Shown piece by piece: positions 9,108-55,431 of a stretch of DNA of 64,000 nucleotides. The first letter of the stretch is position 1, and every line of letters begins with the position of its first letter. Source of the DNA: Acidobacteriota bacterium (lineage in GTDB: Bacteria > Acidobacteriota > Vicinamibacteria > Vicinamibacterales > UBA2999); assembly GCA_009694735.1 (NCBI GenBank), contig SHUG01000002.1:6533-70532 (forward strand). Direction: 5' to 3'. Under the pieces are notes generated by a model. The model worked only from the letters and a program-made list of their open reading frames with translations. It made no database searches and had not been told where the DNA came from. The position numbers were made by a program, and so were the translations under genes.

Positions 9108-10244
9108 CTACTCGTCGTCTTCGCCGTCTTCGTCGTGGTGGGTTTCTTCGGCGATCGACACCCGCGCGAACACCGTCTCGCGAATCTCCGGCGGCGCCAA
9201 TTCGTAGGCGATGGCCTCGAGGTCGGCCGGGATCGGCGCCATGAACTCCATCCGCTCCTTGGTCCGCGGGTGGGTGATGACGAGCCGCTCCGCGTGCAGG
9301 AACGGGCGGGCCAGCCGGGTCACCGCCTTCAGTGGATGGGGCACGCGCCGGTGTACGCCGCCGTAGAGCGCGTCGCCGACAATAGGATGGCCGATCGCGC
9401 TCAGGTGGACCCGGATTTGGTGGGTGCGGCCGGTGTGAATAGCCACCCGCAACAAGGTGACACCCTCCAGGTCGCGCGCCCACGTCACGCGGGTGATGGC
9501 GTCGCGCGATCGGCTGGCGCGCGTCGACATCTTCACGCGGTTCTTGGGGTCGCGGCCAATCCGGGCGTTGATGCGCTTGCGCTGCTGCACCAGGCCCCAC
9601 GCCAGCGCCACGTATTCCTTCTCGACTTCGCGATCGTGAAACTGCCGCGTCAGCTCGCGGTGTGCGTCGTCATTCTTGGCCACCACCATCACGCCCGAGG
9701 TTCCCTTGTCGAGCCGATGCACGATGCCCGGGCGAATCTCGCCGCCGATGCCGCTCAGATCCTTGATGTGATGCAGCAGCGCATTGACCAGCGTGCCAGA
9801 CGGGTTGCCCGCGGCCGGATGCACCACCATGCCCGCCGGCTTGTTGACGACGACGATGTCGACATCGTCGTAGAGGATCTCGATGGGCAGGTCTTCGGCT
9901 TGGGCGGCCGTCGCCGTGGGCGCCGGCAGCACCACCGAGATCACGTCGCCGTCGCGGATGTCGCTGTTGGACTTGGCGTCCTGGTAGCGCGAATGCGTGA
10001 CGTGACCGGTTTCGATCAGCCGCTGGATCTGGGACCGCGAGTAGTCGGCGATCTCACCGGCGAGAAATCGGTCGAGACGATCGCCGCGGTTGTCCTCGTT
10101 GGCCGTGAAATGCACGGTCGGCAGCGACGCCCGTGCATCAGGGATCGGGGATCGGGGATCGGGGATCGGGGATCCGGAATCGGGGACTTTCTTCCTGCGA
10201 CCCTTGCTCCGGTCTCTCGTCCCGGGCCCTTTACCCTGGCTCAT
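9108..10244 (-). CDS. rluD: RluA-family 23S rRNA pseudouridine synthase (RluD-like, S4 domain)
   Basis: HRLDKGTSGVMVVAK catalytic motif and an S4-like N-terminus (DRLDRFLAGEI). The ATG at 10244 overlaps the lgt stop (ATGA). An alternative GTG start lies at 10115, downstream of the heptamer array. Confidence 0.85.
   Translation of the reverse strand: MSQGKGPGTRDRSKGRRKKVPDSGSPIPDPRSPIPDARASLPTVHFTANEDNRGDRLDRFLAGEIADYSRSQIQRLIETGHVTHSRYQDAKSNSDIRDGDVISVVLPAPTATAAQAEDLPIEILYDDVDIVVVNKPAGMVVHPAAGNPSGTLVNALLHHIKDLSGIGGEIRPGIVHRLDKGTSGVMVVAKNDDAHRELTRQFHDREVEKEYVALAWGLVQQRKRINARIGRDPKNRVKMSTRASRSRDAITRVTWARDLEGVTLLRVAIHTGRTHQIRVHLSAIGHPIVGDALYGGVHRRVPHPLKAVTRLARPFLHAERLVITHPRTKERMEFMAPIPADLEAIAYELAPPEIRETVFARVSIAEETHHDEDGEDDE
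10137..10185. repeat. heptanucleotide tandem array, 7 units (ATCAGGG, ATCGGGG x4, ATCCGGA, ATCGGGG)
   Basis: Read directly from the sequence. It lies between the lgt stop and the conserved RluD core. Confidence 0.95.
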
Positions 10245-11071
10245 GTGAACCGGGGCTTGCGGGGGCCGTGCGACGGGTCCGCGGTTCCCGCGGCGGCTGG
10301 CCGGTTGGCGCGGCTCAGGTACCACAACATAATCAGGCTGAGCGGGCCGAGGACGACCGAAATGAACTGCGAGGTCGACAGCATGTCGAACACCAGTCCG
10401 CGATCGTCGCCGCGGTAGAACTCGATGATGAAGCGGAGCACGGAGTACAGGAACACAAAGCTCCAGAAGGTCCGGCCTGCAAACGCCCCCTTACGCCTTT
10501 CGAGCAACAGCAGCGCCACGAAAATCACCAGCCCCGCAGCTGATTCGTACAGTTGCGTCGGGTGCAGCCCGACGTTGAGCGGCGTGCCGACGTTGAAATT
10601 GGCGGCCGGGTCGGTAAAGGTGATGGCCCAGGCGACGTCGGTCGGCTTGCCGTAGCAGCAACCAGCCATCAGGCAGCCGAGCCGGCCCACCATGTAGCCG
10701 AGCGCAATGCCGGGTGAGAACAGATCGGCCGACGGCCACAGCGCCAGCCGGTGCTTTCGCAACTGGTAGATGCAGACCAGGAGCGCGGCGATCAGTCCGC
10801 CGTAAAACACGCCGCCCGACCGCAGCAGCGTCGTGAATTCTGCCCAGCTGCTGGTGAAGTGCTGGAAGTCGACGATGAACAGCAGCGCCTTGGCGCCAAC
10901 CAGGGCCGCGATGATCACCCAGATCAGCAGATCCATGATCCGGTTGCCGTCGATGCCGGCGGCCCGTGCTCGCCTGACGGCCAGCCAGAGGCCGGTGAGA
11001 TACGCGGCGGCGAGCAGCACGCCGTAGGAGTAAATGGTGATCGGTCCGGCGTTAAACAGGATTGGATGCAC
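10241..11071 (-). CDS. lgt: prolipoprotein diacylglyceryl transferase
   Basis: Typical Lgt N-terminus (PILFNAGPITIYSYGVLLAAAYL) and a polytopic membrane profile. It sits in the lgt-lspA-ileS neighbourhood. Confidence 0.93.
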   Translation of the reverse strand: MHPILFNAGPITIYSYGVLLAAAYLTGLWLAVRRARAAGIDGNRIMDLLIWVIIAALVGAKALLFIVDFQHFTSSWAEFTTLLRSGGVFYGGLIAALLVCIYQLRKHRLALWPSADLFSPGIALGYMVGRLGCLMAGCCYGKPTDVAWAITFTDPAANFNVGTPLNVGLHPTQLYESAAGLVIFVALLLLERRKGAFAGRTFWSFVFLYSVLRFIIEFYRGDDRGLVFDMLSTSQFISVVLGPLSLIMLWYLSRANRPAAAGTADPSHGPRKPRFT

Positions 11072-11561
11072 GGCTACGCTTCCCTAGTCCAAGAATGTCG
11101 AGAATCATGAAAATCACGCCGAACGTAATGGCGGCATCGGCGACGTTGAAGGCCCAGAAGTGCCAGCCGTCCCAATAGGCATCCACGAAGTCCAGCACGT
11201 ACCCGGCGCTCGCGCGGTCGATCAAGTTGCCGATGGCGCCGCCCAGCACGCCGGCCATGCCGAGGCGGGCCAGCCGATCCCCAAGTGGCACCGTGGCAGC
11301 GTACCATGCGACGCCGCCCAAGGCGATCAGGCCGACCAGCGACAACACCACCGTCTTGAACGGGAACTCCACCGAGTTGAGCATGCCGAACGCCGCGCCG
11401 GTATTGTGCACCCGCGTGAAGTCGACCAAGCCGGGAATCACCACGACGCTCTCGTGCAGCGCGAGCGCAGGCCGAATCATCGCCTTGGTGATCTGATCGA
11501 GGACCACCACGGTGATCGCGACATACAGTTCCAGTCGTCGGGCGGTAAGCACGCCTAGCAA
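11052..11561 (-). CDS. lspA: lipoprotein signal peptidase II
   Basis: LspA motifs NTGAAFG and FNVADAAI. It lies immediately downstream of ileS. Confidence 0.93.
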   Translation of the reverse strand: MLGVLTARRLELYVAITVVVLDQITKAMIRPALALHESVVVIPGLVDFTRVHNTGAAFGMLNSVEFPFKTVVLSLVGLIALGGVAWYAATVPLGDRLARLGMAGVLGGAIGNLIDRASAGYVLDFVDAYWDGWHFWAFNVADAAITFGVIFMILDILGLGKRSRASNPV

Positions 11562-11625: not shown

Positions 11626-14469
11626 TTAGAGACTCACCGGTTCGGCTAAGGCATCCACGCAGCGCGGACACAGGCCGGTTCGTTCCGCGTCCTGGCTGAC
11701 GTCTGGCACGTAGCGCCAGCAGCGATCGCACTTGATGCCGTCGGCCTTCTCGACCATCACACGAACGCCCGGTTCCATTACCTTGGTCTCTTCCAACTGC
11801 CAGAAGAGTGTGTTTTTGCCGATCTCGACAGTGGAAACGCCAAACAAGGTCGGCAAGAACTCGCGGTAGTTTTCGAGTAATTCGCCAGTTGCCTCACTCG
11901 CAGCGACGGTGACTTGTGCCGACAGGTTCGCGCCAATGGTCTTATCCTTGCGCTTCTCTTCAAGCCGCAGGTTGACCTGATCGCGCACGGCGGCCAGCGA
12001 GGCCCATCGCTCGATCAACGTGGCGTCTTTCCACTGTTCCAACTCAGTCGGGAACAGCGCCATGTGCACCGATGCTTCGCGCTCGCCCGGCAACATTCGC
12101 CACAGCTCGTCCATCGTCACCGACAGGATCGGCGCGAGCAGGCGCGCCAGGCCATCGACGATGATGAACATCGCCGTCTGGCCCGACCGGCGGGCTTCCG
12201 ACTTGGCGCCGAACGTGTACATCCGGTCCTTCGTCACGTCGATGTAGAACGCGCTCAGGTCCACGGTGATCAGCTGGCTGGCCACCTGGAAGATGCCGGG
12301 GTAGTCGTAGTCGTCGTAGGCCTTGATGATGCGCTCGGCGGCGTCGGCGTATTTTGCCAGCGCCCAGCGATCGATCTCGTGCATGCGCGCCTTCGGCACC
12401 TGGTCGTCCTTGGGATCGAAGTCGTAGAGGTTGGCGACCAGCACGCGGATGACGTTGCGGATTTTCCGGTACGCCTCGACCGTGCGGGCGAGCACTTCCT
12501 TGCCCACGCGGATGTCTTCGCGGTAGTCGACCATCGACGCCCACAGCCGCAGGATCTCCGAACCGCTCTGCTTGATGATGTCCTGCGGCGCCACGGTGTT
12601 GCCGAGCGACTTCGACATCTTGCGGCCCTGGTCGTCCATCACGAAGCCGTGCGTCAGCACCTGGCTGAACGGCGCCCGGCCGCGCGTGCCGATGCCGACC
12701 AGCAGCGAGCTGTGGAACCAGCCGCGATGTTGATCGCTGCCTTCCAGGTAGATGTCGGCCGGCCAATGATGATCGGCGCGGAAGGGCAGCACCGCCTCGT
12801 GGCTGGAGCCCGAGTCGAACCAGACGTCCAGGATGTTGCTTTCGCGCTCGAACTCGGTGCCGCCGCATTCGCTGCACGCCATGCCCTCGGGCACGAACTC
12901 CGCGAGCGGCCGCTCGTACCACGCGTCGGCGCCGTAAACGTCGAACACCGCGGCAGCCTTGTCGACGAGCGCCTTGGTCAGCACCGCCTGGCCGCACTTC
13001 ATGCAGTCCATCGCCGGAATCGGCACGCCCCACACGCGCTGGCGCGAGATGCACCAATCCGGGCGGTTGGCGATCATGCCCTCGATGCGCGCCTGGCCCC
13101 ACGACGGGATCCAGCGGGTGTCGTCGATCGCCTTGAGCGCCCGCTCGCGCAGGTGCTTGGCGTCCATGGCGATGAACCACTGCGCGGTAGCGAGGAAGAT
13201 CACCGGGTTGTGGCAACGCCAGCAGTGCGGATACGAGTGCTCGAAGTCCTCGCGCGACCAGAGCAAGCCGCGCTCCTTCAGCGCGGCTTCGACCTTGGGA
13301 TTGGCATCCCACACCTTCAGCCCGGCGAACAGCTCCACCGACTCGTTGTAGTGCCCGCCCGGGTCGAGTGGGGCGTAGATCTCGAGGCCGTACTTCACGC
13401 CCGTGTGGTAGTCGTCCGCGCCGTGTCCGGGCGCGGTGTGCACCGCACCGGTGCCGGCTTCAAGTGTGACGTAGTCGCCGAGCACGCCCAGCGAGTCGCG
13501 CGCGTACAGCGGATGACGGAACACCAGCCGCTCCATCGTCTTACCCTCGAACGAGGCGAGCAGGGTGGTGAACGCGCGGCCCGTCTTCTGGCTCACGGTT
13601 TCGGCGAGGCCCTTCGCGACGATCACGACCTTGCCGTCCTTGTCCGCCGAAGCCTCGGCGGAGGTGGAGACGTCGTAGGCACCGTATTCGAAGTCGGGAT
13701 GGAACGCGACGGCCAGGTTCGATGGAATCGTCCACGGTGTGGTCGTCCAGATCAGCACCGAGACCTGGCGTCCGGCGAGCACGGGGACACGCGTCGCCAG
13801 TTCCGCATGGCCATTCTCGCTCAACGGGAACTCGACGTAGATCGATGGCGAGGTGTGCGGCTCGTACTCGACCTCGGCTTCGGCCAGCGCGGTGCGGCAG
13901 TGCGTGCACCAGTGCACCGGCTTCTTGCCCTTGTAGACCATGTCCTGCTCGACGAACTTGCCGAGCGCGCGGACGATGGCCGCCTGGTACGGATGGTTCA
14001 TCGTCTTGTAGGGCTCGGCCCACTCGCCGATTACGCCGAGACGCTTGAACTCGTTGCGCTGGATGTCGAGGTACTTGGCGGCGTACGCTTGGCACTCACG
14101 GCGGAAATCGGCCGTGCTCATCTGCCGTTTCCTGGGACCGAGCTCGCGATCGACGCGCAATTCGATCGGCAGGCCGTGACAATCCCAGCCCGGGATGTAG
14201 GGCGCGTCGAAGCCCATCATGTTGTGCGACTTGACGACCAGGTCCTTGAGGATCTTGTTGAGCGCGTGGCCGATGTGAATGTTGCCGTTGGCGTAGGGCG
14301 GGCCGTCGTGCAACAGGAACTTCTTGGCGCCTTTGCGCGCCGTGCGAATCTGTCCGTACAGGTCCATCTCGTCCCAACGGGCGATGGTTTCCGGTTCGGT
14401 GGTTTGCAGGTTCGCCTTCATCGAGAAGGACGTTCGCGGCAGGTTGCACGTGTCTTTCCAGTCGGCCAT
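11626..14469 (-). CDS. ileS: isoleucine--tRNA ligase
   Basis: HIGH motif (NIHIGHALNK), KMSKS motif and a C-terminal zinc finger (CDRCW…CPRC). The true ATG is at 14469 (MADWKDT…). The ORF extension up to 15054 is a shadow. Confidence 0.97.
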   Translation of the reverse strand: MADWKDTCNLPRTSFSMKANLQTTEPETIARWDEMDLYGQIRTARKGAKKFLLHDGPPYANGNIHIGHALNKILKDLVVKSHNMMGFDAPYIPGWDCHGLPIELRVDRELGPRKRQMSTADFRRECQAYAAKYLDIQRNEFKRLGVIGEWAEPYKTMNHPYQAAIVRALGKFVEQDMVYKGKKPVHWCTHCRTALAEAEVEYEPHTSPSIYVEFPLSENGHAELATRVPVLAGRQVSVLIWTTTPWTIPSNLAVAFHPDFEYGAYDVSTSAEASADKDGKVVIVAKGLAETVSQKTGRAFTTLLASFEGKTMERLVFRHPLYARDSLGVLGDYVTLEAGTGAVHTAPGHGADDYHTGVKYGLEIYAPLDPGGHYNESVELFAGLKVWDANPKVEAALKERGLLWSREDFEHSYPHCWRCHNPVIFLATAQWFIAMDAKHLRERALKAIDDTRWIPSWGQARIEGMIANRPDWCISRQRVWGVPIPAMDCMKCGQAVLTKALVDKAAAVFDVYGADAWYERPLAEFVPEGMACSECGGTEFERESNILDVWFDSGSSHEAVLPFRADHHWPADIYLEGSDQHRGWFHSSLLVGIGTRGRAPFSQVLTHGFVMDDQGRKMSKSLGNTVAPQDIIKQSGSEILRLWASMVDYREDIRVGKEVLARTVEAYRKIRNVIRVLVANLYDFDPKDDQVPKARMHEIDRWALAKYADAAERIIKAYDDYDYPGIFQVASQLITVDLSAFYIDVTKDRMYTFGAKSEARRSGQTAMFIIVDGLARLLAPILSVTMDELWRMLPGEREASVHMALFPTELEQWKDATLIERWASLAAVRDQVNLRLEEKRKDKTIGANLSAQVTVAASEATGELLENYREFLPTLFGVSTVEIGKNTLFWQLEETKVMEPGVRVMVEKADGIKCDRCWRYVPDVSQDAERTGLCPRCVDALAEPVSL

Positions 14470-14492
14470 AGCGTCTCTGTATTGTAGTGTGA

Positions 14493-14524
14493 GGGCTTGG
14501 GGCTTGAGACTTGGGGCTTGGGGG
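14493..14524. repeat. heptanucleotide array GGGCTTG (GGGCTTG x2, AGACTTG, GGGCTTG, GGGG…)
   Basis: Read directly from the sequence. It lies in the ileS / M16 peptidase divergent intergenic region. Confidence 0.9.
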
Positions 14525-15852
14525 AAGGCGTGGCGATTCGCGAAACGGTCCTGGATAACGGCTTGAAGGTGCTCGTGCAGGAGGTTCACACCGCCCCGCT
14601 GGCGTCGGTGTGGTGCTGGTACCGCGTGGGGTCGAAGGACGAAACGCCCGGCGTCACCGGCGTCTCTCACTGGGTCGAGCACATGAACTTCAAGGGCACC
14701 CGGAACATTCCCCGGGACCAGGTGAAGGGCATCATCGAGAAGTTCGGTGGCAGCTGGAACGGCTACACCTGGATTGACCAGACGACCTATCTCGAAACGG
14801 CGTCGAAGGACGCCCTCGACCGCATGCTGTTCATCGAGGCCGAGCGCATGGACGCCTGCCTCTACGACCCGGCCGACTGTGAGTCGGAGCGGACGGTGAT
14901 CATCTCGGAGCTGCAAGGCGGCGAGAACGACCCCGAGCAACTGCTCGACACCGAGGTGACCGCTGCCGCCTTCAAGGTGCACCCGTATCACCACCCGACC
15001 ATCGGCTGGTTGTCGGACCTGCAGACCATGACGCGCGAGGACCTTTACGGCCACTATCGCCGGTTCTACGTCCCCGCCAACGCCACGATCGTCGTGGTCG
15101 GCGACGTCGAGACCGATGATGTGGTGAAGCGGGTGTCAGCGCAGTTTGGCGGCATTGCCTCGGGCGCGCGCAAGGCGGCCGTGCGCCAGGTGGAGCCCGA
15201 GCAGCAGGCCGAGCGTCGCGTGGTGCTGCGCAAAGAAGGCACCGCCGCCTACTGGAAGGCCGTGTTTCACGCGCCGGCGTTTGCGGACGAAGCCTTTTTC
15301 CCGCTGCTGGTGGCCGACGCCGTGCTCAACGGCGCCGCGGGCCTGAACATCTGGTCCGGGGGCGGCGTGTCGCGGCCACAGCGCAGCGCGCGGTTGTACC
15401 GGACGCTGGTGGATGGCGGTCTTGCCTCGAGCGTGAGCGGCGGATTGATGCCGACGGAGCATCCCTACCTCTATTCGCTCAGCGTTAGCGTGGCCGAAGG
15501 CGGTTCCCTCGCGGCCGTCGAGGACGCCGTGCTGAAGGAGGTGGCGCGTCTGCGACACGACGGCATCACCCCGGCGGAGTTGACCAAGGTCAACGCGCAG
15601 CTACGGGCGCGGTTTGTCTATGACGGCGACAGCGTGACCGACATCGCGCACCAGTTGGGCTATTTCGAAACGATCGGATCGTGGCGGAACTATCACGATC
15701 TGCGTGCCCGGCTCGAGGCGGTGACGGCCGAGGCGGTGCACGCCGCCGCCGTGAAGTACTTGACCCCTGCGAACCGGACCATCGGTTGGTTTGAACCGCA
15801 AGCCGGGATCGGGGATCCGGGATCCGGGATCCGGACAGGGTCATCGAAGTGA
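14497..15852 (+). CDS. M16 (pitrilysin) family zinc peptidase, catalytic subunit
   Basis: Inverted zinc motif HWVEH followed by NFKGT. The TTG start at 14497 lies inside the GGGCTTG array. A GTG at 14530 (VAIRETVLDNGLKVL) is an equally plausible start. Confidence 0.88.
   Translation: MGLETWGLGEGVAIRETVLDNGLKVLVQEVHTAPLASVWCWYRVGSKDETPGVTGVSHWVEHMNFKGTRNIPRDQVKGIIEKFGGSWNGYTWIDQTTYLETASKDALDRMLFIEAERMDACLYDPADCESERTVIISELQGGENDPEQLLDTEVTAAAFKVHPYHHPTIGWLSDLQTMTREDLYGHYRRFYVPANATIVVVGDVETDDVVKRVSAQFGGIASGARKAAVRQVEPEQQAERRVVLRKEGTAAYWKAVFHAPAFADEAFFPLLVADAVLNGAAGLNIWSGGGVSRPQRSARLYRTLVDGGLASSVSGGLMPTEHPYLYSLSVSVAEGGSLAAVEDAVLKEVARLRHDGITPAELTKVNAQLRARFVYDGDSVTDIAHQLGYFETIGSWRNYHDLRARLEAVTAEAVHAAAVKYLTPANRTIGWFEPQAGIGDPGSGIRTGSSK
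15805..15839. repeat. heptanucleotide array (GGGATCG, GGGATCC x3, GGACAGG)
   Basis: Read directly from the sequence. It encodes the C-terminal tail (GIGDPGSGIRTG) of the first M16 gene, just before the GTGA junction with the second. Confidence 0.9.
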
Positions 15853-17222
15853 CAAGCAACGGGCTCCACCCGGCGCGAACGGTGCTCGACAACGGCGTGA
15901 CGGTGATCGCCAAGGCGAATCACACGACGCCGGCCGTGAGCTTGCTGATCGGCGTGCGCGCCGGCGCCTATGCCGACCCACCCGATCGCGAAGGCACGGC
16001 GGCGCTGTGCGCGCGAGTGCTCGACCGTGGCACGGTCACGCGCCCGGCCGAGGTCATCGCCGACGACCTCGATGGTCGCGGCGCCTCGTTGTCGGTCGTC
16101 ACCGGCCGCCACCAGATGGCCATCAGCGCAACCTGCTTGTCGGACGATTTCGGAGCCGTGCTCGGCCTCGCCGCCGACATTGCCCGCCACCCGGCTTTCC
16201 CCGACGCCGAAGTGACCACGCGGCGCGCCGACTTGATCACCTCGATCCGGCAGGACGAAGACAACCCGGCGCCGATGGCCGTCGACGCCTTCGCGCGCGC
16301 CTTGTATGGCTCGCATCCCTACGCTCGTAAGGTTCGTGGCAGCGTCACGACGGTCGAGAGTATTCGCCGGCAAGACCTGGTGCGCTTCTACCAGAAGGGT
16401 TTCCAGCCGCACTTCATCACTGTCGTCGCGGTGGGCGATGTCGCGGAAGAGGTGGCGATTGCCGCGATCGCCAAGGTGTTCGGCGATTGGTCCTCCTTCG
16501 CCAAGGCTACGGAGGACAAGTCCGCCTCCGTTCGTGGGGACAAACCTTTCTTGTCCGCCGAAGCGCTTGGCGCGAAGGTGGAAGGTTTGTCCGGCCCCGA
16601 CGCCGTGCTCGTGCCCGATGCCATCGCGCCAACCGAGCGCCGCCTAGTCACCGTGCCGATGATGAACAAGGCGCAGGCCGACCTCGCCTATGGCTTTGCC
16701 GGCATCCGCCGCTCGCACCCGGAATTCCCGGCGTTCTCGGTGATGAACAACGCGCTCGGCCAATATGCGATTGGCGGGCGCCTGGGCGACCGCATTCGCG
16801 AGCGGCAAGGCATGGCCTATTACGTCTTCAGCTCGCTTGACGCGAGCCTGGGCGCCGGGCCGTTCACCATCCGCGCCGGCGTCTCGGCCGACAACGTCGA
16901 GCGCGCCATCGCCTCGATCGATACCGAGCTGGCGATGGTCCTGGAGTCCGGCTTTACGGCCCAGGAAATCGACGAGTCAAAAAGCTACCTGGTCGGCTCG
17001 TTGCCGCGACAGCTCGAGACCAACGCCGCGATCGCCTCCTTCCTGCTGAATGCCGATTTCTTCGACCTTGGCCTCGATTACGATGTGCGCTTGCCCGGGC
17101 TGATTCAGTCGGTGACCCTCGAGGCGGCCAACGCCGCCGCGCGCCAACTGCTCGATCCGTCGCGGGCCACCATTGCCGTCGCCGGGCCATGGATAAAGAC
17201 AGCCACGGATTTGCACAGATGA
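15849..17222 (+). CDS. M16 family peptidase, non-catalytic partner subunit
   Basis: M16 fold similar to the upstream gene but without HxxEH. The GTG start overlaps the upstream TGA. Confidence 0.85.
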   Translation: MTSNGLHPARTVLDNGVTVIAKANHTTPAVSLLIGVRAGAYADPPDREGTAALCARVLDRGTVTRPAEVIADDLDGRGASLSVVTGRHQMAISATCLSDDFGAVLGLAADIARHPAFPDAEVTTRRADLITSIRQDEDNPAPMAVDAFARALYGSHPYARKVRGSVTTVESIRRQDLVRFYQKGFQPHFITVVAVGDVAEEVAIAAIAKVFGDWSSFAKATEDKSASVRGDKPFLSAEALGAKVEGLSGPDAVLVPDAIAPTERRLVTVPMMNKAQADLAYGFAGIRRSHPEFPAFSVMNNALGQYAIGGRLGDRIRERQGMAYYVFSSLDASLGAGPFTIRAGVSADNVERAIASIDTELAMVLESGFTAQEIDESKSYLVGSLPRQLETNAAIASFLLNADFFDLGLDYDVRLPGLIQSVTLEAANAAARQLLDPSRATIAVAGPWIKTATDLHR

Positions 17223-17914
17223 ACACAGATCAAATACGAGCTGTGTTTTTCGACGTCGACTTCACCCTGATCTATCCCGGGCCGACGTTCCAGGCCGAGG
17301 GCTACCGGCAGGCGTGCGCGGCCAGCGGCATCGAGGTCGATCCCGCCCGTTTCGAGCACGCCACTGCCGCCTCCTCATTCATCCTCGATGAAGTCGAAGA
17401 GCAGATCTACAACCACGATCTCTTCGTCCATTACACGGCCTCGATCATCGAGCACATGGGCGGCCGCGGGCCGAACGTGGTGGCGGTGGCGCGTCGCATC
17501 TACGATCAGTGGGCTGTCAATCACCACTTCGAGATGTACGACGATGCGGCGCCGGTGTTGAGGGGCTTGCAGGAGCGCGGGTTGAAGGTGGGGGTGATCT
17601 CGAACTCGCACCGCAGCCTCGATGCCTTCCGCGAACATTTCTCGCTCACGGGCTTGATCCACGTCTCGGTGTCCTCGTCTGAGCACGGCTACATGAAGCC
17701 GCACCGCAGCATCTTCGACGCCGCGCTGGAGCGGGCGGGGGTGCAGGCCGCCGAGTCGCTGATGGTCGGCGACAGCCTGAAGCACGATGTGGAAGGGGCG
17801 CTCAAGGCGGGTATGCGGGCCGTGTTGCTACGCCGATCGGGCGAGGTGCCGGCGGGACTGCCGGCAGGTGTTCCAGTGATTCAAACGCTGGCGCAGTTGG
17901 ACCAACTGCTGTGA
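17219..17914 (+). CDS. HAD-superfamily hydrolase
   Basis: Motif I FFDVDFTL. The ATG at 17219 forms an ATGA overlap with the upstream stop. Motif IV GDSLKHD is present. Confidence 0.85.
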   Translation: MNTDQIRAVFFDVDFTLIYPGPTFQAEGYRQACAASGIEVDPARFEHATAASSFILDEVEEQIYNHDLFVHYTASIIEHMGGRGPNVVAVARRIYDQWAVNHHFEMYDDAAPVLRGLQERGLKVGVISNSHRSLDAFREHFSLTGLIHVSVSSSEHGYMKPHRSIFDAALERAGVQAAESLMVGDSLKHDVEGALKAGMRAVLLRRSGEVPAGLPAGVPVIQTLAQLDQLL

Positions 17915-18753
17915 TCAACATGACTGACATTCGCCTTCGCGACCTCAAGACCATCGACGAGTTCCGGCAAGTGGTGGATCTCGAGCACGCCATCTGGGGC
18001 TACACCGACAGCGCGGACGTGGTCACCGTTCCGGTATTCATCTTCACCGTGAAGCGCGGCGCCACCCTGATCGGCGCGTTCGATGCCGATGGCCGCATGG
18101 TCGGTTTTGCCTACGCGGTGGTCGGGATGAAGGACGGCCGGCCGATGCTGTGGTCGCACATGACCGGGGTGCTGCCCGACTATCGCGGCGGGCTGGGCTA
18201 CCGCCTGAAGCTGGAGCAGCGCTCACGCGCTCTGGCGCTGGACTACGAGTTGATCGAGTGGACCTTCGACCCCATGCAGGCGATGAACGCGCACCTCAAC
18301 TTCGCGAAACTGGGCGGCGTGGTCGAGGAATACGCGGAGAATTTCTACGGCGAGTCGACCAGCGCCCTGCACCGCGGCACGCCCACCGATCGCCTGATCG
18401 TCAGCTGGCGCATAGGTGAGCCGCACGTGACGCGGCGGCTGGAGCAAACCCCAGGACTCACCGCCCGGTCTCATGAGGTAGGGGAAGCTCCCGTGGCGAA
18501 CGTGACCTCCATGGACGGGGATTGGCGTGAAGTCAGGACGATCGACCTCACCGTGACCGAGCGGCGGCTCTGGATCGAGATCCCGACTGGCTTCACGCAG
18601 ATGCAGCAGCAGGCACCGGAACGAGCGCTCCAGTGGCGCCTGCACGTGCGCCAGCTGTTCCAGCATTACTTCGCGAACGGCTACCGCGCGGTCGATTTCG
18701 TGCTGCAACGCGACGCCGGCTTTGGGCGCTACTTGCTGGCTAGAAAAGACTAG
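17911..18753 (+). CDS. GNAT-like acyltransferase family protein (tentative)
   Basis: The conserved-looking block GLGYRLKLEQR…IEWTFDPMQAMNAHLNFAKLGG resembles GNAT-fold proteins from memory. It has not been verified by a search. Confidence 0.55.
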   Translation: MINMTDIRLRDLKTIDEFRQVVDLEHAIWGYTDSADVVTVPVFIFTVKRGATLIGAFDADGRMVGFAYAVVGMKDGRPMLWSHMTGVLPDYRGGLGYRLKLEQRSRALALDYELIEWTFDPMQAMNAHLNFAKLGGVVEEYAENFYGESTSALHRGTPTDRLIVSWRIGEPHVTRRLEQTPGLTARSHEVGEAPVANVTSMDGDWREVRTIDLTVTERRLWIEIPTGFTQMQQQAPERALQWRLHVRQLFQHYFANGYRAVDFVLQRDAGFGRYLLARKD

Positions 18754-18765
18754 CCGCCAGCCACC

Positions 18766-19107
18766 TCATCCCGGGGGCCAGGTCATCGTGCGTCCACCGA
18801 GCACGTGCAGGTGGAGATGGAACACCGTCTGGCCCGCTTGCCCATTGCAGTTGAAGACGGTCCGGTAGCCTGGACCGTCGAAGCTCTTTTCCTTGGCGAG
18901 CGCCGCCGCCCGCCGCACCATCGCGCCCACCAGCCCATCATCGCTTGCCGACAGGTCGTTGAGTGTTGCGACGTGCCGTTTTGGCACCACCAGTACGTGC
19001 ATCGGCGCTTGCGGGTTGATGTCGTTGAAGGCGATCAGCTGATCGTCCTCGTAGACTTTTGAGGCGGGGATCTCGCCCGCGATGATCTTGCAAAACAGGC
19101 AACTCAT
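18766..19107 (-). CDS. HIT-family (histidine triad) nucleotide hydrolase
   Basis: Starts MSCLFCKII and carries the HLHLHVLGG triad. The ORF extension up to 20025 is a shadow of the AAA gene region. Confidence 0.93.
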   Translation of the reverse strand: MSCLFCKIIAGEIPASKVYEDDQLIAFNDINPQAPMHVLVVPKRHVATLNDLSASDDGLVGAMVRRAAALAKEKSFDGPGYRTVFNCNGQAGQTVFHLHLHVLGGRTMTWPPG

Positions 19108-19183
19108 GAAGCTATGGTGCCTCGGGTGCGTACGGTGCCACAAGTGCCAACCGTGCTGGTGCCAAGTGTACCGGGCGCGCGGC

Positions 19184-20338
19184 TTATGGTCGGCGGAGGG
19201 CCGCGGGCAGCTCACCGATCGCCTGGAGCGGCCACGCCGTAATGCGCTCGTCGATCCGATAACGATGCTCGCCAGGATAGACAATCCACAGGTGATCGAG
19301 CGCGAGGTCCTCGAGTGCCATGCGCATCGACCGGGTCGTGGCCGGCGCGTCGCTGAACTTGACCTCGACACCGTAGCGGCGGCCGTTGACGACGAAGAAG
19401 AGGTCCAGTTCCGCGCCGCCGTGGGTGCCCCAGTAGTACGCCTCGGACGGCCGGACGGCCGCGAGGACCTGCTCGATGGCGAAGCCCTCCCAGGAGGCGC
19501 CGACTCGCGGATGCCCGAGCAGCGCGCTTCGATCGTGAAGATCGAGCAGGCTGTGCAGCACCCCCGAATCGCGCAGGTAGATCTTCGGCGCCTTGATCTG
19601 CCGCTTGCCGAGGTTCTGGTGCCACGGCTGCAGTTGCCGCACCATGAACGTGCCGGTGAGGATGTCGAGATACGTCCGGACGGTCTTGTCGGTGAGGCCC
19701 ATCGACCGGGCCAGCTCCGAACTGTTCCAGGTCTGGCCGTGATAGTGCGCGAGCATGGTCCAGAACCGGCGCATGGCCGCCGCCGGAATGGTAATGCCCA
19801 GTTGTGGAATGTCGCGTTCGAGAAACGTGCGAATGAAGCCCTCGCGCCACTTGACGCTATCGGCCAACGACCGTGCCAGGTAGGCGCGCGGGAAGCCGCC
19901 TCGGAGCCAGAGCCGCTCCCACGACTCGCTGCCGCTCTCTGCCAGGTCGAAACCCGATAGTGCGATGAATTCGATCCGGCCGGCGAGGGATTCGGATACG
20001 CCCCGCACCAGCGCGGGCGAGGCACTCCCCAGCACGAGAAACCGCGGCGGCCGCTCGGGCCGGTCCACCAGCACCCTCAGGACGCTGAACAACTCGGGCC
20101 GGGCCTGCAGCTCGTCAAGGATGATCAGCCGCTGTTCGCGTCCAAGCACCAGCTCAGGGTTCTCGAGCCGGCGGCGATCGCTTGGCGACTCCAGATCGAA
20201 GTAGATCGCACTTCGACGGGCGGCGACCTGTCGGGCCAAGGTGGTCTTGCCGCACTGCCGCGGCCCGAGCAGCGCGGTGACCGGCGACCGCCGGATCGCG
20301 GCCTCGATCGCGCCGACGCGGTCATGCCTGTCTCTCAT
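19184..20338 (-). CDS. AAA+ ATPase with DUF4143-like C-terminal domain
   Basis: Walker A GPRQCGKTT and Walker B LIILDELQ. The architecture is typical of the AAA_14/DUF4143 family. It is preceded by an AT-rich promoter island. Confidence 0.85.
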   Translation of the reverse strand: MRDRHDRVGAIEAAIRRSPVTALLGPRQCGKTTLARQVAARRSAIYFDLESPSDRRRLENPELVLGREQRLIILDELQARPELFSVLRVLVDRPERPPRFLVLGSASPALVRGVSESLAGRIEFIALSGFDLAESGSESWERLWLRGGFPRAYLARSLADSVKWREGFIRTFLERDIPQLGITIPAAAMRRFWTMLAHYHGQTWNSSELARSMGLTDKTVRTYLDILTGTFMVRQLQPWHQNLGKRQIKAPKIYLRDSGVLHSLLDLHDRSALLGHPRVGASWEGFAIEQVLAAVRPSEAYYWGTHGGAELDLFFVVNGRRYGVEVKFSDAPATTRSMRMALEDLALDHLWIVYPGEHRYRIDERITAWPLQAIGELPAALRRP

Positions 20339-20410
20339 CTGGCGTGAAATGTTAACATGATTATTCGGATATTAATTCCGAAATTTCACACTTAATTATT
20401 CCTGGCTTTT
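20339..20410 (-). promoter_or_regulatory. AT-rich promoter/operator candidate for the AAA+ ATPase gene
   Basis: A sharp AT-rich patch in an otherwise GC-rich window. Inverted repeat GTGAAAT (20344-20350) / ATTTCAC (20383-20389) flanks CGGA-TATTAAT-TCCG (20366-20380). Confidence 0.4.
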
Positions 20411-20444
20411 GGCCACGTCCGCTGCGCTTACGCCGCCGGCCGGC

Positions 20445-21293
20445 TCATCCTGTGGGTTGACGCTCGATGGCGGCGATGCGGGGGATGCCCTGGAGGTCGT
20501 TGCTGATGCGCAGCAGCGACAGCCCGCTATCGCCAGTGATCAGGTCGCGCACGGCGCCGGCCTGGGTGTGGCCGATCTCCATCAGCAGCAGGCCGCCGGG
20601 ACTCAGCATTCGGCTGGCGGTCGTCAGCACCAGGCGGATATCGGTGAGGCCGTCGGTGCCGGCGGTCAGGGCAGAGCGTGGCTCGTAGCTGCGGACTTCA
20701 GGCTCGAGCTCAGCGTACTCGTCATCGGTGACGTATGGCGGGTTCGACACGATCAGGTCGAACGGACCGTCGATGCCGTCAAGGTAGCGCGTCTGCCTGA
20801 ACTCAACCCGATCGCTGACGGCATGGCGGCGGGCATTGGCCCGCGCGACCTCGAGCGCCGGCGCGGAGATGTCGGTGGCGACCAGCCGCGCGCGCCGACA
20901 CTCGGCGGCCAGCGTGATCGCCAGGCAGCCGCTGCCGGTGCCAATGTCGGCGGCGACACCGAATACGCTCGACAGCGCGATCTCGACAATCAATTCGGTT
21001 TCAGGACGCGGAATGAGCACGGCCGGCGAGACCGCGAAATCCCGGTTCCAGAATTCCTGCACGCCGGTGATGTAAGCGATCGGTTCGCGTCGCGATCGCC
21101 GCTGGATCGCCGTTTGATGGGCGGCCGCGAACGTCTCGGGTGGCGGGTCCGTGTCGCGGGCGTGGATGGTGGCGCGGTCCCATCCCAGGACGTGCATGGC
21201 GAGCAGCAGCACGTCGCGGGCAGCCTCGGACGGTTCGATGCCCGCCGCCACCAGCGCCGCCTTCGCCGCGGTGAGGTGTTGGCGGAGCGTCAC
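20445..21293 (-). CDS. prmC: release factor glutamine methyltransferase
   Basis: VSNPPYV motif and SAM motif DIGTGSG. It overlaps the prfA stop by 4 nt. Confidence 0.92.
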
Positions 21294-22366
21294 TGACCCG
21301 ACTGCGTGACTTGGCGCAGCTTCTCGGCGGTGTAAAACGTCGACAGGGCGTCGATCAGCTCGTCGAGGTTGCCGTCCATGACCCCGTGCAACTGGTGCGT
21401 CGTGAAGTTGATGCGGTGATCGGTGACCCGGCTCTGGGGGAAGTTATAGGTCCTGATCTTCTCGGATCGATCGCCCGTGCCGATCTGGCTCTTGCGGTCC
21501 TTGGCGATCGCGTCGTGCTGTTTCTGCATCTCCGCGTCGTAGAGGCGGCTGCGCAGCACCTTCATGGCCTTGGCGCGGTTCTTCACCTGCGATTTCTCAT
21601 CCTGCTGCGAGACAACCGTACCGGTCGGGATGTGGGTGATGCGCACGGCGGAGTAGGTGGTGTTCACGCTCTGGCCGCCGGGCCCACTCGAGCAGAAGGT
21701 ATCGATGCGGAGATCCTTCTCCTGGATCTGGATGTCGACTTCGTCGGCTTCCGGCAACACGGCGACGGTCGCGGCCGAGGTGTGGATGCGGCCGCTGGCT
21801 TCGGTGGCCGGCACGCGTTGCACGCGATGCACGCCGCTTTCGTACTTCAGCTTACTGAACGCGCCCTTGCCCTCGATGCTGACCACCACGTCCTTGACGC
21901 CGCCCTTGTCAGCCTCGCTGAGCGACATCAACTCGATCTTCCAGCGCTGGCGCTCGGCATAGCGGGTGTAGGCGCGGTAGAGCTCGCTGGCAAAGAGCGC
22001 CGCTTCCTCACCCCCGGTGCCGGCGCGGATTTCCACCATCACGTTGCGATCGTCGTTGGGGTCCTTGGGCACCAGCAGGATCTTGATCTGGTCCGACAGG
22101 CGTTCTTTCTGGACGTTGAGGTCGTTCAGCTCCTCGATCGCGAGGTCGCGCATCTCGGGGTCACCTCCCTTGATCAGCTCTTCGGCGTTGGCGATCTGCT
22201 GCGTCGCGGCCTTGAACTCGCGGTACTTCTGTACGAGCTCCTCGATCTCCGCCAGCGCTTTCGACTGCTTGCGGAACTCGTTGGCGTCACTCTGCACGGC
22301 GGTCGTGCCGAGGGATGCCATCAGTTCCTCATACTTCGCCTCAACGGTTTCGAGCTTGTCGAACAA
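21290..22366 (-). CDS. prfA: peptide chain release factor 1
   Basis: GGQ motif ([11 protein letters not shown]) and the RF1-specific PAT tripeptide (VPATEASGR). TTG start, with AGGAG 8 nt upstream. Confidence 0.96.
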
Positions 22367-22383
22367 AACAGGTGCTCCTGAAA

Positions 22384-22428
22384 GTCCGGCTGAAGCCGGA
22401 CGCTACATCCGTCCGGACCGGGCCGGAC
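22384..22428. repeat. REP-like double hairpin (GTCCGGC-TGAA-GCCGGAC, then GTCCGG-ACCGGG-CCGGAC)
   Basis: Perfect 7-bp stem. The first 27 nt recur at 50833-50859 with 25/27 identity. It lies between the moaD stop and the prfA start. Confidence 0.8.
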
Positions 22429-22439
22429 TCCACAACTCT

Positions 22440-22685
22440 TCAGCCGCCGGAGACCGGCGGCAGGAATGCGACCTCGTCGCCATCGGCCACCGCCACCGTG
22501 AAGCGCGAGTAGTCGGCGTTGATCGCGCACGAAATCGACTTCTCGTAGGGCGACAGGTCCGGGTACTCGGCCACCAGTCCCGCCCACACGGCGCCGACGG
22601 TGGCGCCGCTTGGGGCTTCGCGCGTCAGCTCACCGGTGCCGGCGATGTCGCGCAACCGCGCAAACAGGCGGACGTTTACGCGCAT
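22440..22685 (-). CDS. moaD: molybdopterin synthase sulfur carrier subunit
   Basis: 81 aa with a ubiquitin-like profile and a C-terminal GG. It overlaps moaE. Confidence 0.85.
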   Translation of the reverse strand: MRVNVRLFARLRDIAGTGELTREAPSGATVGAVWAGLVAEYPDLSPYEKSISCAINADYSRFTVAVADGDEVAFLPPVSGG

Positions 22686-23149: not shown

Positions 23150-23171
23150 GGCAGCTGATTAGTATACCGAG

Positions 23172-23227
23172 GGGATCAGGGATCGGGGATCAGGGATCCG
23201 GGACGGGAGATCGGGGACAGGGGATCT
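23172..23227. repeat. heptanucleotide array, 8 units (GGGATCA/GGGATCG/GGGATCC plus degenerate units)
   Basis: Read directly from the sequence. It fills most of the thiD-stop / moaE-start spacer. Confidence 0.9.
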
Positions 23228-50634: not shown

Positions 50635-50732
50635 GGATCAGGGATCAGGGATCAGGGATCAGGGATCAGGGATCAGGGATCAGGGATCAGGGATCAGGGA
50701 TCAGGGATCAGGGATCAGGGATCAGGGATCAG
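50635..50732. repeat. heptanucleotide array, 14 perfect tandem GGATCAG units
   Basis: Counted unit by unit from the sequence. It is followed by the degenerate unit GGACGCC. Confidence 0.97.
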
Positions 50733-50832
50733 GGACGCCACGACATTGTCTGCCCAGGCGCCAGACACCCGGATTACGAACGTGGGGCCGTGCGAGAACT
50801 GGCCGACACCGTGTAAACGCTCGCCGGGCTAG

Positions 50833-50859: not shown

Positions 50860-50908
50860 AAGCCTCGTCAAGCCCCAAGCCCCAGGCCCCAGGCCCCAAG
50901 CCTCGTCA
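50859..50908. repeat. heptanucleotide array AGCCCCA x2 / GGCCCCA x2 flanked by direct repeats CAAGCCTCGTCA
   Basis: Read directly from the sequence. It is the reverse-complement family of GGGCTTG and abuts the TGA stop at 50906-50908. Confidence 0.85.
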
Positions 50909-52006
50909 GTCGTGCGGCTTTTCGACCGCCACCAACTCCGGTTGTCTTATGACGGGCGGCAGATCCTCGGCCTGGCTGCGAACCGGCAAGCGCTCCGGCC
51001 CGAAGTGCGGTAACGACACCGGTGCACCTCGACGCGCCGACTGATACAACGCATCCACCACGCGCACGTCCCGGCACCCTTCCTCCGCCGATGGTTCAGG
51101 GTCTTTGCCGTTCAGCACGCAATCCGAAAAGTAGACCAGTTCCGCTGCGAACTGATCGCGGCGTCGGCCCTTCTTCGTCTTCACGTCGTCGCCGACCGTC
51201 AGGGTGTAGCCGAGGGCCTCGGCGTAGTCGTATGCGGGCTCAGCGTGAATGTTGCCTTCGGTTCCGACTACGCGCAGATCCGACACGCCATTGGCAGCGA
51301 AGCTGGTCGTGAACGTCGCCAGGCGGTCGCCGTCAAACCGCATCATGCCCGACGTCATCTCATCAATCTCCGGCAGATCGGCGCGCGCGCCATCGATTGA
51401 GTAGGCAAAGACCTCGGTGGGCTCGGCGCGGAACAGCAGGCGGGCCGCATTGATACAGTACACACCCAGGTCAAAAAGCGTCCCGCCGCCCAGCTCACGC
51501 TGGGTGCGAATGCCATTTGGCTTGGCGTGCATCGAGAACGAGGACGTGAAGTAGCGCGGCTCGCCGATCTTCCCGGCGCGCACCATGTCGACGATTTCAA
51601 GGAATAGCGGCTCGAAGTGCAGCCGGCACGCCGTCATCAGGCGCACATTGGCAGCTGCTGCCGCCTCAATCATCCTCGTGCATTCCGCTGCTGTGACCGC
51701 CAGTGGCTTCTCACAGAGCACGTGCACGCCAGCGCGGGCCGCCCGCACGGCGTAGTCCGCGTGCTCGGAATTCGGCGTGCAGATGTAAACCGCGTCCACT
51801 TCCTTCAGGCACCGCTCGTAGTTGTCGTAGCTCGAGCGAACTGGAACGCGGTAGCGATCGCCCAGTTTATTGAGCTTCTCGTCGCTGCCGCTCACAATGG
51901 CGTGAAGTGCGGAGTTGCGCTTGGCGTGCGCGAACGCCGGTAGCACCGCCGCTTGCGCAATGTGGCCGAGCCCGACCACGGCATAACGAACCTTCGACAA
52001 AGCCAT
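50906..52006 (-). CDS. Gfo/Idh/MocA family NAD(P)-dependent oxidoreductase
   Basis: N-terminal Rossmann motif VGLGHIAQ and an EKP motif (LCEKPLA). Confidence 0.9.
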   Translation of the reverse strand: MALSKVRYAVVGLGHIAQAAVLPAFAHAKRNSALHAIVSGSDEKLNKLGDRYRVPVRSSYDNYERCLKEVDAVYICTPNSEHADYAVRAARAGVHVLCEKPLAVTAAECTRMIEAAAAANVRLMTACRLHFEPLFLEIVDMVRAGKIGEPRYFTSSFSMHAKPNGIRTQRELGGGTLFDLGVYCINAARLLFRAEPTEVFAYSIDGARADLPEIDEMTSGMMRFDGDRLATFTTSFAANGVSDLRVVGTEGNIHAEPAYDYAEALGYTLTVGDDVKTKKGRRRDQFAAELVYFSDCVLNGKDPEPSAEEGCRDVRVVDALYQSARRGAPVSLPHFGPERLPVRSQAEDLPPVIRQPELVAVEKPHD

Positions 52007-55366: not shown

Positions 55367-55375
55367 CCTACCTCA

Positions 55376-55431
55376 GGGATCGGGGATCGGGGATCGGGGA
55401 TCGGGGATCGGGGATCGGGGATCGGGGAGGG
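55376..55431. repeat. heptanucleotide array, 7 perfect GGGATCG units plus GGGAGGG
   Basis: Counted from the sequence. It lies 10 nt from the PQQ gene ATG and directly abuts the blaI fragment. Confidence 0.95.

Follow-up and report, generated by a model that had tools for sequence, protein, structure and literature searches.

The 64-kb stretch of the Acidobacteriota contig SHUG01000002.1 that is analysed here (64,000 nucleotides; termed the window) carries six dispersed tandem arrays of a G-rich heptanucleotide, GGGATCN, and at least two further G-rich heptamer arrays, of a GGGCTTG type, that represent the same phenomenon. The arrays are specific in period, lie at the ends of genes, are oriented according to the gene end that they adjoin, differ between near-identical strains by whole units, and are rapidly gained, lost and rebuilt from other units among related genomes. 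They are best explained, with a probability of about 0.78, as long simple-sequence repeats (SSRs) that arise from slippage and are filtered by selection. What is new is the host lineage of a phenomenon already known from Xanthomonas and cyanobacteria, and no new mechanism or function is established: a poorly understood class of repeat, the G-rich heptamer microsatellites with G-quadruplex (G4) potential, is now extended to Acidobacteriota/Vicinamibacterales, which are among the most abundant and least cultured of soil lineages.

Arrays were called by running Tandem Repeats Finder (TRF) on the window. TRF reports period-7 arrays at all six positions at which a first-pass annotation, made from the sequence alone, had placed them: array 1 at 10137-10186 (7.1 copies), array 2 at 15803-15834 (4.6 copies), array 3 at 23172-23222 (7.4 copies, imperfect, with 78% matches), array 5 at 50635-50735 (14.4 perfect copies) and array 6 at 55376-55428 (7.6 perfect copies), all of them G-rich on the plus strand, and array 4 at 30486-30513 (4.0 copies), where the plus strand is C-rich. 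When up to one mismatch is allowed, the double unit GGGATCNGGGATC matches the window 33 times, as compared with 0.59 matches expected, and none of 100 shuffled sequences reached 33; every one of these matches is confined to the six arrays. Together the TRF calls and the shuffle test confirm the arrays as first described, and likewise the description of a dispersed G-rich heptamer family, which has six loci (eight with the GGGCTTG type) in 64 kb. The period is specific: among exact tandem runs of at least 2.7 copies in the window, with periods from 5 to 12 tested, period 7 alone occurs.

The family is wider than its GATC-containing units. TRF also finds GGGCTTG-type arrays at 14493-14523 and 50869-50902 and a weaker GGGGCGT-type array at 34098-34127; moreover, the arrays include unit variants that lack GATC (GGAATCG, GGGACGG and GGGGACA), which refutes the earlier statement that every unit contains it. 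The unit numbers of the window arrays are 4, 4.6, 7, 7.6, 8 and 14.4. On inspection, the six arrays are pure head-to-tail tandems with neither spacers nor conserved flanks, and their flanks show no common motif and no target-site duplication. This structure does not agree with interspersed repeats of the REP/BIME, MITE and CRISPR types, which are defined by a palindromic unit, by terminal inverted repeats or by unique spacers. A degenerate relic that had been proposed at 37015-37048 (minus strand), within an N-terminal extension of the open reading frame (ORF) of an ECF sigma factor, encodes the array-like peptide LPDLGSDSGIR but falls below the TRF threshold, so that a decayed array at this site is plausible but unproven.

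Position and orientation relative to genes

Genes in the window were mapped from statistics of GC content at third codon positions (GC3), from Pfam matches and from the gene calls on identical contigs. By this map the window is 91% coding, and the part of it that is non-genic or no more than 60 nt from the end of a gene amounts to 19%; nevertheless, the midpoints of seven of the eight arrays (the six GGGATCN and the two GGGCTTG arrays) fall in this part (P ~6e-5). The first-pass description of the arrays as lying at gene boundaries is thus supported; its further claim that none lies within a conserved domain is correct, though array 1, well inside the ORF encoding RluD, is translated.

The arrays also follow a rule of orientation. 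In the window, start-proximal arrays all have the G-rich strand antisense, such that the mRNA would carry (N)GAUCCC, and stop-proximal arrays all have it in sense (array by array, the G strand is antisense in 1, 3, 4, 5 and 6, and sense in 2, in the GGGGCTT array at 50869-50902 and in the GGGGCGT array at 34098-34127). Five of the six arrays had been thought to be G-rich on the plus strand regardless of gene orientation; this is wrong, inasmuch as the excess is not significant (five of six, P = 0.22; six of eight, P = 0.29) and is accounted for by gene orientation, the G strand being antisense before starts and sense after stops. A replication-strand bias was rejected too, these excesses not being significant; the GC skew is flat across the window.

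The rule was tested across genomes on GGGATCN arrays at no fewer than 119 loci, obtained by scanning species-representative genomes for at least four consecutive units (a requirement that biases the distribution of unit numbers) and yielding about 95 array-gene pairs. Among the matches listed, arrays within 60 nt upstream of a start codon are antisense in 32 cases and sense in 11 (P = 0.002), arrays within 60 nt past a stop codon are sense in 31 cases and antisense in 21, and the type of gene end is associated with orientation (32:11 versus 21:31; Fisher P = 0.001). The genes at these loci were called by an ORF/GC3 caller built for this analysis, which is crude (within the window it misassigns one neighbour of array 5 and labels arrays 2 and 6 'in core') and which replaced an assignment from open frames in fixed flanks that had left 72 of 129 arrays undetermined. 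The rule is the same as that published for the GGGAATC and GGGGATT repeats (PMC4692102). Its recurrence in a third, unrelated lineage strengthens the case for a general constraint upon transcripts at gene ends.

Four of the six GGGATCN arrays lie ahead of start codons. Array 3 (23171-23227; plus strand G-rich) consists of eight imperfect units (GGGATCA/G/C, GGGACGG, GAGATCG and GGGACAG) within the 82 nt that separate the stop of thiD (23232) from the start of moaE (23149); as these two genes are on the minus strand, the G strand is antisense, and the array lies 6 nt past the former codon and 22 nt ahead of the latter. Array 4 (30486-30517; G-rich strand minus), which reads CCCCGAT(CCCTGAT)x3 on the plus strand, occupies the whole of the 26-nt spacer between a stop codon (30485) and the start of a HAD hydrolase gene (30512, plus), and its last unit supplies the ATG; its G strand is antisense to both adjoining genes. 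(Directly 3' of the HAD hydrolase gene lies a selenocysteine tRNA gene, at 31209-31300 on the plus strand; Rfam RF01852, 61.9 bits.) Array 5 (50635-50735; plus strand, 14.4 perfect copies of GGGATCA, antisense) lies 45 nt upstream of the start of a gene for a TonB-dependent receptor (50590, minus), and array 6 (55376-55431; plus strand, (GGGATCG)x7 followed by GGGGAGGG, perfect, antisense) lies 10-19 nt upstream of the start of a PQQ dehydrogenase gene (55357/55366, minus).

At stop codons, array 2 (15803-15839; GGGATCG followed by (GGGATCC)x3, on the plus strand and in sense) occupies the last codons of the first of two M16 peptidase genes (M16a, 14518-15852, plus) and lengthens its product by about 16 residues (..EPQ-AGIGDPGSGIRTGSSK-stop), ahead of a GTGA overlap with the second (M16b). 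The second unit type is represented at a stop by GGGGCTT/GGGGCCT x4.9 (50869-50902, minus), a few nt past the stop codon of a GFO/IDH/MocA oxidoreductase gene (termed here the GFO gene; 50906-52006, minus) and on its sense strand; and the third, weaker type by GGGGCGT/GGGGTGT units (34098-34127, minus; 73% matches), again on the sense strand and immediately 3' of the stop of a DUF218 gene (34129). The other GGGCTTG array (x4.4; 14493-14523, plus) lies in the spacer of about 50 nt between the divergent starts of ileS (14469, minus) and M16a (14518/14531, plus).

Array 1 (10137-10186; (GGGATCG)x5 plus variants, G-rich on the plus strand) differs from the others in occupying codons 20-36 of the gene for the pseudouridine synthase RluD (9108-10244, minus), where the sense strand is C-rich and is translated as a linker, ...DSGSPIPDPRSPIPDAR.... 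The gene call in ENA has 378 residues and begins at an ATGA overlap with the lgt stop. The N-terminus bears an unusual basic motif, MSQGKGPGTRDRSK, that is conserved in all close Vicinamibacterales-like homologues (more than 25) and missing from more distant homologues of 327-340 residues; it is followed by a hypervariable linker of 25-40 residues and then by the conserved FTA(D/E)xDxxGDRLDRFL. In many homologues the linker contains IPDPGSR, PDPRSP or similar, that is, the translation of (GATCCCN)3. From these comparisons, array 1 appears to be genuinely coding, its frame having probably long been preserved as a disordered RluD linker.

Strain variation, turnover and deletion junctions

Independent assemblies reproduce the arrays. 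A Logan contig (L001) is 100% identical to the window over 14283-27789, a GenBank contig from another metagenome-assembled genome (MAG; L002, GCA_009691225.1) is 99.93% identical, without gaps, over 21133-28335, and L185 and L186, contigs of two separate sequencing runs, read through array 6. Arrays 2 and 3, which are the shorter or imperfect ones, are unchanged in independent assemblies. Short-read contigs do tend to break off within arrays (array 5 in the case of L185, array 6 in those of L187 and L188; the Logan contig L194 stops some 94 nt beyond the lgt stop codon, by coordinate arithmetic probably within array 1), and caution is therefore due regarding the exact copy numbers of the long arrays. 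Such contig ends and uncertain copy numbers are all that would favour an assembly artefact, an explanation that carries next to no probability: array 3 recurs base for base in both L001 and L002, array 2 in L001 and array 6 in the two other runs, and arrays of the same kind occur in many long-read MAGs among the matches listed. The arrays are not assembly artefacts.

Nearly identical strains differ by whole units. Array 6, with (GGGATCG)x7 in the window, has eight units in L185 and L186, which include GGGAGCA and GGGAGCG in differing orders, and yet the flanks of these alleles are 99.75-99.83% identical; gene calls on an ENA contig imply a further difference of +14 nt at this array. Two ENA contigs of a single assembly differ in the spacer between the GFO and receptor genes, which measures 316 nt in the first and 295 nt in the second, a difference of -21 nt at array 5. 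These differences of +7, +14 and -21 nt bear out the slippage in 7-nt steps that the first-pass annotation had foreseen, and the copy-number polymorphism between strains for which it had suggested a search is thus found at arrays 5 and 6.

More distant comparisons were made with five syntenic loci of 20 kb (MoaE 87-90% identical) and with 63 loci around the GFO gene. In relatives at about 75-90% identity, most arrays are either missing or built of other units at the same junction, and every relative has arrays of its own at other junctions. The thiD-moaE spacer is 8-9 nt long and array-free in three relatives (L189-L191), and a short homologous array is present in L192, read here as a sister lineage of the window because both share a deletion of a macB gene. 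Insertion of the array changed the C-terminus of ThiD from KLY-stop to RGFS-stop, and the ancestral GTATACTAA remains downstream. Between M16a and M16b, three relatives are array-free, the first protein ending in ..GWFEPQ-stop or VVE-stop at a TAATG overlap; at the same junction the window has GGGATCC units and the 16-residue tail, L192 has GGGCTTG units that supply a new stop codon, and L193 has TCCCTGA x11. The ileS/M16a spacer is 31 nt long and array-free in L191 and L192.

At the junction of an ABC-like gene with the HAD hydrolase gene, which array 4 occupies, each relative has some other short tandem: period-8 arrays of the TGATCTCC type, AACCGTTG x5 or, in L193, an inverted pair. Because the window unit TGATCCC is one base from TGATCTCC, this comparison suggests an old array locus subject to unit drift and homogenisation. 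The period-8 arrays lie at L189 450-472, L190 547-584, L191 452-474 and L193 609-633, the last with its inverted partner upstream; the complement of the unit, GGAGATCA, combines a Shine-Dalgarno-like GGAG with GATC, and the inverted pair in L193 could fold into a hairpin.

Turnover is most varied beyond the GFO stop codon. There the window has GGGGCTT x5 and L127 (GGGGCTT)x9; unrelated heptamers, often as inverted pairs, occur in L134, L136, L143 and L131, octamers in L132, L145 and L128, and a plain hairpin followed by T-rich sequence in L122 and L124; neither an array nor a hairpin was seen at this site in L133 and L166. The inverted heptamer pairs (L134 4549-4633, L143 5299-5400, L136 2128-2207 and L131 ~3297-3360, e.g., AATAACG.../...CGTTATT) are candidates for terminator hairpins that consist of tandem repeats, and resemble the repeat pairs described from Xanthomonas. 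Two other observations concern arrays within genes of relatives: in L189, CAAGCCC x3.9 (20062-20088) falls within the region of the ileS ORF that encodes the C-terminal part, about 150 nt short of the stop, and is a possible coding heptamer array; and at ~3797-3897 of L122 the translations of ORFs on both strands (ALIPDPRSLIP and AGIRDRGSGIK) imply that a GGGATC-type array has decayed close to the 5' end of a gene of about 240 residues; in the window this gene is deleted.

Two of the arrays, 5 and 6, lie at deletion junctions. Where the window has array 5, the GFO and receptor genes of relatives are separated by 1.7-3.6 kb that contain other genes, and homology picks up again at window position 50631; abutting the array is the remnant of a convergent gene (50736-50816, plus) that is intact in relatives (about 240 residues) and of which the last ~20-27 codons (..ITNVGPCENWPTPC..) are left, so that the order in the window is convergent-gene remnant, array and conserved receptor leader. 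Array 6 stands in place of a divergent promoter and of the first ~52 codons of blaI, and abuts the 5'-truncated blaI-like repressor gene (55431-55658, plus), which retains positions 48-114 of the Penicillinase_R profile; in L182 (1969-2446) the blaI gene is full-length (129 residues) and is preceded by an 88-nt divergent spacer with a palindromic operator. L166 has (GGGATCA)x4-5 upstream of its PQQ dehydrogenase gene, at the same spot as array 6, with a different gene beyond. A link between arrays and deletions is only a lead, and an unproven one, because the other arrays are clean insertions, the junction of the macB deletion is array-free and the tendency reported by Rehm et al. (PMC4692102) is the opposite.

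Several features of these junctions may be noted in passing. The palindrome in the promoter region of L182 is GTTATAAAAATAAC. The truncated blaI has lost its DNA-binding half, a truncation common to all strain contigs of the species, and downstream of it a gene whose product combines a blaR1-like M56 peptidase with a TonB C-terminal domain (55655-57265, plus) is intact. At 25615-25863 the window retains no more than the initial ~250 nt of a gene for a macB-type ABC transporter; the 2.4-kb gene is intact in L189-L191 (L189 5301-7745), and L192 also lacks it, retaining only short detectable homology. No array of the family occurs at this deletion junction (~25615), and the proposition that every deletion junction carries an array was accordingly rejected. 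A MITE-like pair of ~50-nt inverted repeats, ~70 nt apart, lies nearby at 25417-25468 and 25540-25589, preceded by a short GGGACTG x3 run (25400-25424); the pair is also present in L191, after macB (7812-7915).

Known heptanucleotide repeats and host range

The direct precedent is the study of Rehm et al. (2015), who described 'GGGNATC' heptamers in Xanthomonas (GGGAATC, 186 loci in Xcc) and in Nostoc (GGGGA(C/T)T) (PMC4692102); the first-pass annotation, which knew of no such family in Acidobacteriota, had missed it. About 90% of those repeats are intergenic, mostly between co-directional genes, and they lie within 50 bp upstream of an ORF in antisense or within 50 bp past a stop codon in sense; they comprise 2-26 units, four being the preferred number, are mostly transcribed and form G4s, as shown by circular dichroism (CD) spectroscopy; and their loci are more stable than controls, with no regulatory role found (PMC4692102).

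By unit sequence and arrangement, the window arrays are heptanucleotide microsatellites of this published G-rich GGGNATC class. Read in another register, the unit GGGATCG (arrays 1 and 6) is GGGGATC, a literal GGGNATC; the dominant units, GGGATCA and GGGATCC (arrays 2-5), differ in that they keep GGG and ATC in a shifted register and contain a GATC or GGATCC palindrome. Both sets are head-to-tail heptamers with a G3-4 tract and a short A/T-containing loop (published consensus GGGNATC/GGGANTN); both have many dispersed loci, overrepresented in non-coding DNA; both obey the rule of position and orientation, which all window arrays fit; both vary in length and sequence between close relatives (from 2 to more than 14 units); and neither is linked to a functional class of gene. 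They differ in that the host phylum here is Acidobacteriota and in density, there being 6-8 arrays per 64 kb in the window as against 186 in Xcc, the genome of which is ~5 Mb in size. Furthermore, the window has no inverted pairs and one of its arrays is translated; G4 formation, measured by CD for the published repeats, is predicted for the window units from the motif and from RNAfold; and the syntenic stability of the published loci is not matched, arrays 5 and 6 being at deletion junctions (a small sample, with no control set).

Other systems are less close. As summarised in two later papers (PMC4692102, PMC4679880), Mrázek (2007, PNAS) found heptamers to be the commonest long SSRs (those with units of 5-11 nt) in large, high-GC genomes and proposed polymerase slippage as their generator; as far as those summaries go, the likeness consists in a high-GC and probably free-living host, a dominant heptamer period and slippage as the proposed origin, and the survey predates the Vicinamibacterales genomes. 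MacGregor (2015) described intergenic direct repeats of the heptamer TAACTGA in marine Beggiatoaceae, cyanobacteria and Bacteroidetes, with 7-nt indels between strains and with shorter spacers in relatives that lack the repeats (PMC4679880). Like the window arrays, these directly precede start codons, place the G-poor strand in the transcript, are accompanied by other heptamer types and are patchily distributed across phyla; unlike them, they have an AT-rich unit without G4 potential and a strong forward orientation towards starts. The cyanobacterial short tandemly repeated repetitive (STRR) sequences (e.g., CCCCAAT), to which the arrays had first been compared, are likewise heptamer tandems in non-coding DNA; however, STRR is a cyanobacterial nomenclature with its own set of units, and both host and units differ here, so that the likeness is one of kind and not of family, even though GGGGATC arrays are present in the cyanobacterium Westiellopsis among the matches listed. 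Finally, the 7-bp repeats of hmw1A and hmw2A in Haemophilus influenzae form a heptamer array in the 5' region and differ in copy number between strains, but these are single loci at surface adhesins, with a demonstrated effect on expression, whereas the window has many loci with mostly housekeeping neighbours.

As regards hosts, 60 of the 119 listed loci are in Acidobacteriota according to record titles, with Vicinamibacterales prominent and many long-read MAGs; the remaining hosts listed include Chloroflexota, Cyanobacteria (Westiellopsis), Planctomycetota, Proteobacteria, Actinomycetota and Bacteroidota (Tenacibaculum, 18 units). Several MAGs contribute at least 2-4 loci each among the matches listed, and other heptamers (GGGGTCA, GGGATTA, GGAAGCC and GACTTGC) are often found near these loci. 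The homologues of window genes are named Acidobacteriota or Vicinamibacterales by their sources, in agreement with the Acidobacteriota-like host that had been surmised from the sequence; the lineage is an uncultured one, probably within Vicinamibacterales. A literature search for these unit strings, or for heptanucleotides in Acidobacteria, returned nothing relevant.

Slippage and selection as the probable origin, and the alternatives

On the favoured explanation, G-rich heptamers (GGG plus a loop of 3-4 nt) would arise, change in length and become homogeneous through slipped-strand mispairing as DNA is replicated or repaired. Inasmuch as a non-triplet array breaks the reading frame, such arrays would survive only in spacers, in the outermost codons of genes or as in-frame, disordered linkers; they would look 'placed' at gene junctions because, in a genome that is 91% coding, non-triplet arrays elsewhere break frames. 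Their orientation would be filtered by what transcripts tolerate: near starts, the surviving arrays would put the C-rich, weakly structured strand into the mRNA and, past the stop codon, the G-rich strand with its G4 potential would be tolerated or mildly useful. Purifying selection would thus both confine the arrays to gene ends and fix their orientation relative to the transcript. This account is supported by the excess and specificity of the period, the strain differences in multiples of 7 nt, the reshuffling of units between near-identical flanks, the turnover among relatives, the rewriting of gene ends at insertion sites (ThiD, M16a), the preservation of frame by the RluD array, the enrichment at gene boundaries, the rule of orientation and the published commonness of heptamers among long SSRs; and the housekeeping neighbours (moaE, rluD, the M16 peptidases, the HAD hydrolase) argue against a dedicated switch. 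Slippage as generator, selection as filter and the formation of G4s are what we infer from these observations.

Structure predictions are consistent with this. All six arrays satisfy the canonical G4 pattern, as the first-pass annotation had said. With G4 energies included, RNAfold returns -35 to -45 kcal/mol for arrays with GGGG units versus -11 to -17 kcal/mol for the genomic background, and the C strands of the arrays fold less stably than that background; very stable G4s are thereby predicted for the GGGG-unit arrays.

Several points weigh against slippage and selection as a sufficient account. Slippage alone explains neither the preference for a period of 7 (or of 8 in relatives), nor the dominance of G3-4 units, nor the presence of unrelated units at one junction (GGGATCC in the window, GGGCTTG in L192). 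The sense bias near stops is not significant by itself (31:21, P = 0.21, among the matches listed); the cross-locus orientation statistics rest on crude gene calls; and arrays 5 and 6 coincide with deletions, whereas the loci of Rehm et al. are reported to be stabler than controls.

The rival to be taken most seriously, though it too is unlikely, is that the arrays are selected cis-regulatory elements that act through nucleic-acid structure or protein binding, with copy number tuning the effect. In such a role, which is possible, G4s past stop codons might serve as terminators or protect 3' ends, and C-rich RNA ahead of starts might provide a standby site for the ribosome or for S1, a Rho-loading (rut-like) site, or a UGAUCC complement to the GGAUCA of the 16S rRNA 3' tail. 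The orientation rule at starts and stops, common to Xanthomonas and Nostoc, would fit, as would the strong G4s predicted for GGGG-unit arrays and the weakly structured C strands; the inverted array pairs or plain terminator-like hairpin at the same GFO site in relatives suggest functional equivalence, and the TAACTGA heptamers at starts have been proposed as binding sites for post-transcriptional regulators (PMC4679880). Yet close relatives manage without arrays at the corresponding junctions, their spacers being 8-9 nt long or their stop and start codons overlapping; the unit sequence at a junction is not conserved; Rehm et al. found no regulatory role (PMC4692102); and purifying selection against harmful orientations can by itself yield an orientation bias. 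Searches for signals point the same way: no promoter-like or terminator-like site was recovered by consensus scans near arrays 5 and 6, and no family in an Rfam scan of the window overlaps any array (only the selenocysteine tRNA matched). As regards the 16S complement, the window contains no 16S gene, and the genes downstream of arrays neither regularly have nor regularly lack a Shine-Dalgarno sequence. Two more specific signals were rejected. Outside the arrays GATC occurs 539 times, with 543 expected (observed/expected 0.99), so that nothing points to genome-wide selection on the core, which had been considered as a signal for methylation or restriction; and an all-frame stop element, based on the TGA in TGATCCC, would hold for that unit and not for CGATCCC.

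A more active part for the arrays is harder to sustain. Contingency loci, in which slippage in copy number would switch or grade the adjoining gene by phase variation, as in the hmw case with its precedent of heptamer arrays that control expression, are improbable here: it is true that arrays 5 and 6 are polymorphic among near-identical strains and that array 5 falls within the leader or promoter of a gene for a TonB-dependent outer-membrane receptor, one of the classes in which phase variation is typical, but the neighbours are mostly housekeeping genes (ileS as well as those named above), the only array well inside an ORF is array 1, the frame of which has been kept across homologues rather than switched, arrays 2 and 3 are constant across independent assemblies, and Rehm et al. 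were likewise negative for the sister repeats (PMC4692102). Somewhat less improbable, though still doubtful, is that the arrays are agents or scars of rearrangement, that is, fragile or recombinogenic sites that would provoke one-sided deletions and exchanges between arrays, or else filler made at junctions during break repair. Both perfect arrays are at deletion junctions (1.7-3.6 kb replaced at array 5; a promoter and ~52 blaI codons at array 6), L166 has its array at the same PQQ dehydrogenase spot with another gene beyond, and sister lineages have different units at one junction. Against this, arrays 2, 3 and 4 and the GGGCTTG arrays are simple insertions into intact flanking DNA, and the macB junction (about 25615) and the opposite trend of Rehm et al. 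(PMC4692102) have been mentioned; the cases number two to three and are anecdotal; relaxed constraint after a deletion could have let arrays expand; and the junction at array 5 is spanned by ENA contigs only, which may not be independent of the window. About equally doubtful is a junction-targeted process that seeds and overwrites arrays at stop/start boundaries, with the arrays serving also as breakpoints for deletions and changes of gene order, as at arrays 5 and 6 and in L166; the unrelated units of sister lineages at one junction would fit such a process. If true, the arrays would be a major driver of the remodelling of operon boundaries, and would even create protein tails and linkers, in a phylum that is dominant in soil.

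Whatever their origin, the arrays matter for the assembly of MAGs and for their annotation, given that they break short-read contigs and rewrite termini (new stops, 16-residue tails, the RluD linker). Three leads emerge from the comparison: that different units re-use junctions, that two arrays lie at deletions and that the RluD linker is translated. Elsewhere in the window, a gene for an N6/N4 DNA methyltransferase (PF01555; 60398-61669, minus) adjoins an AlkZ-related gene.

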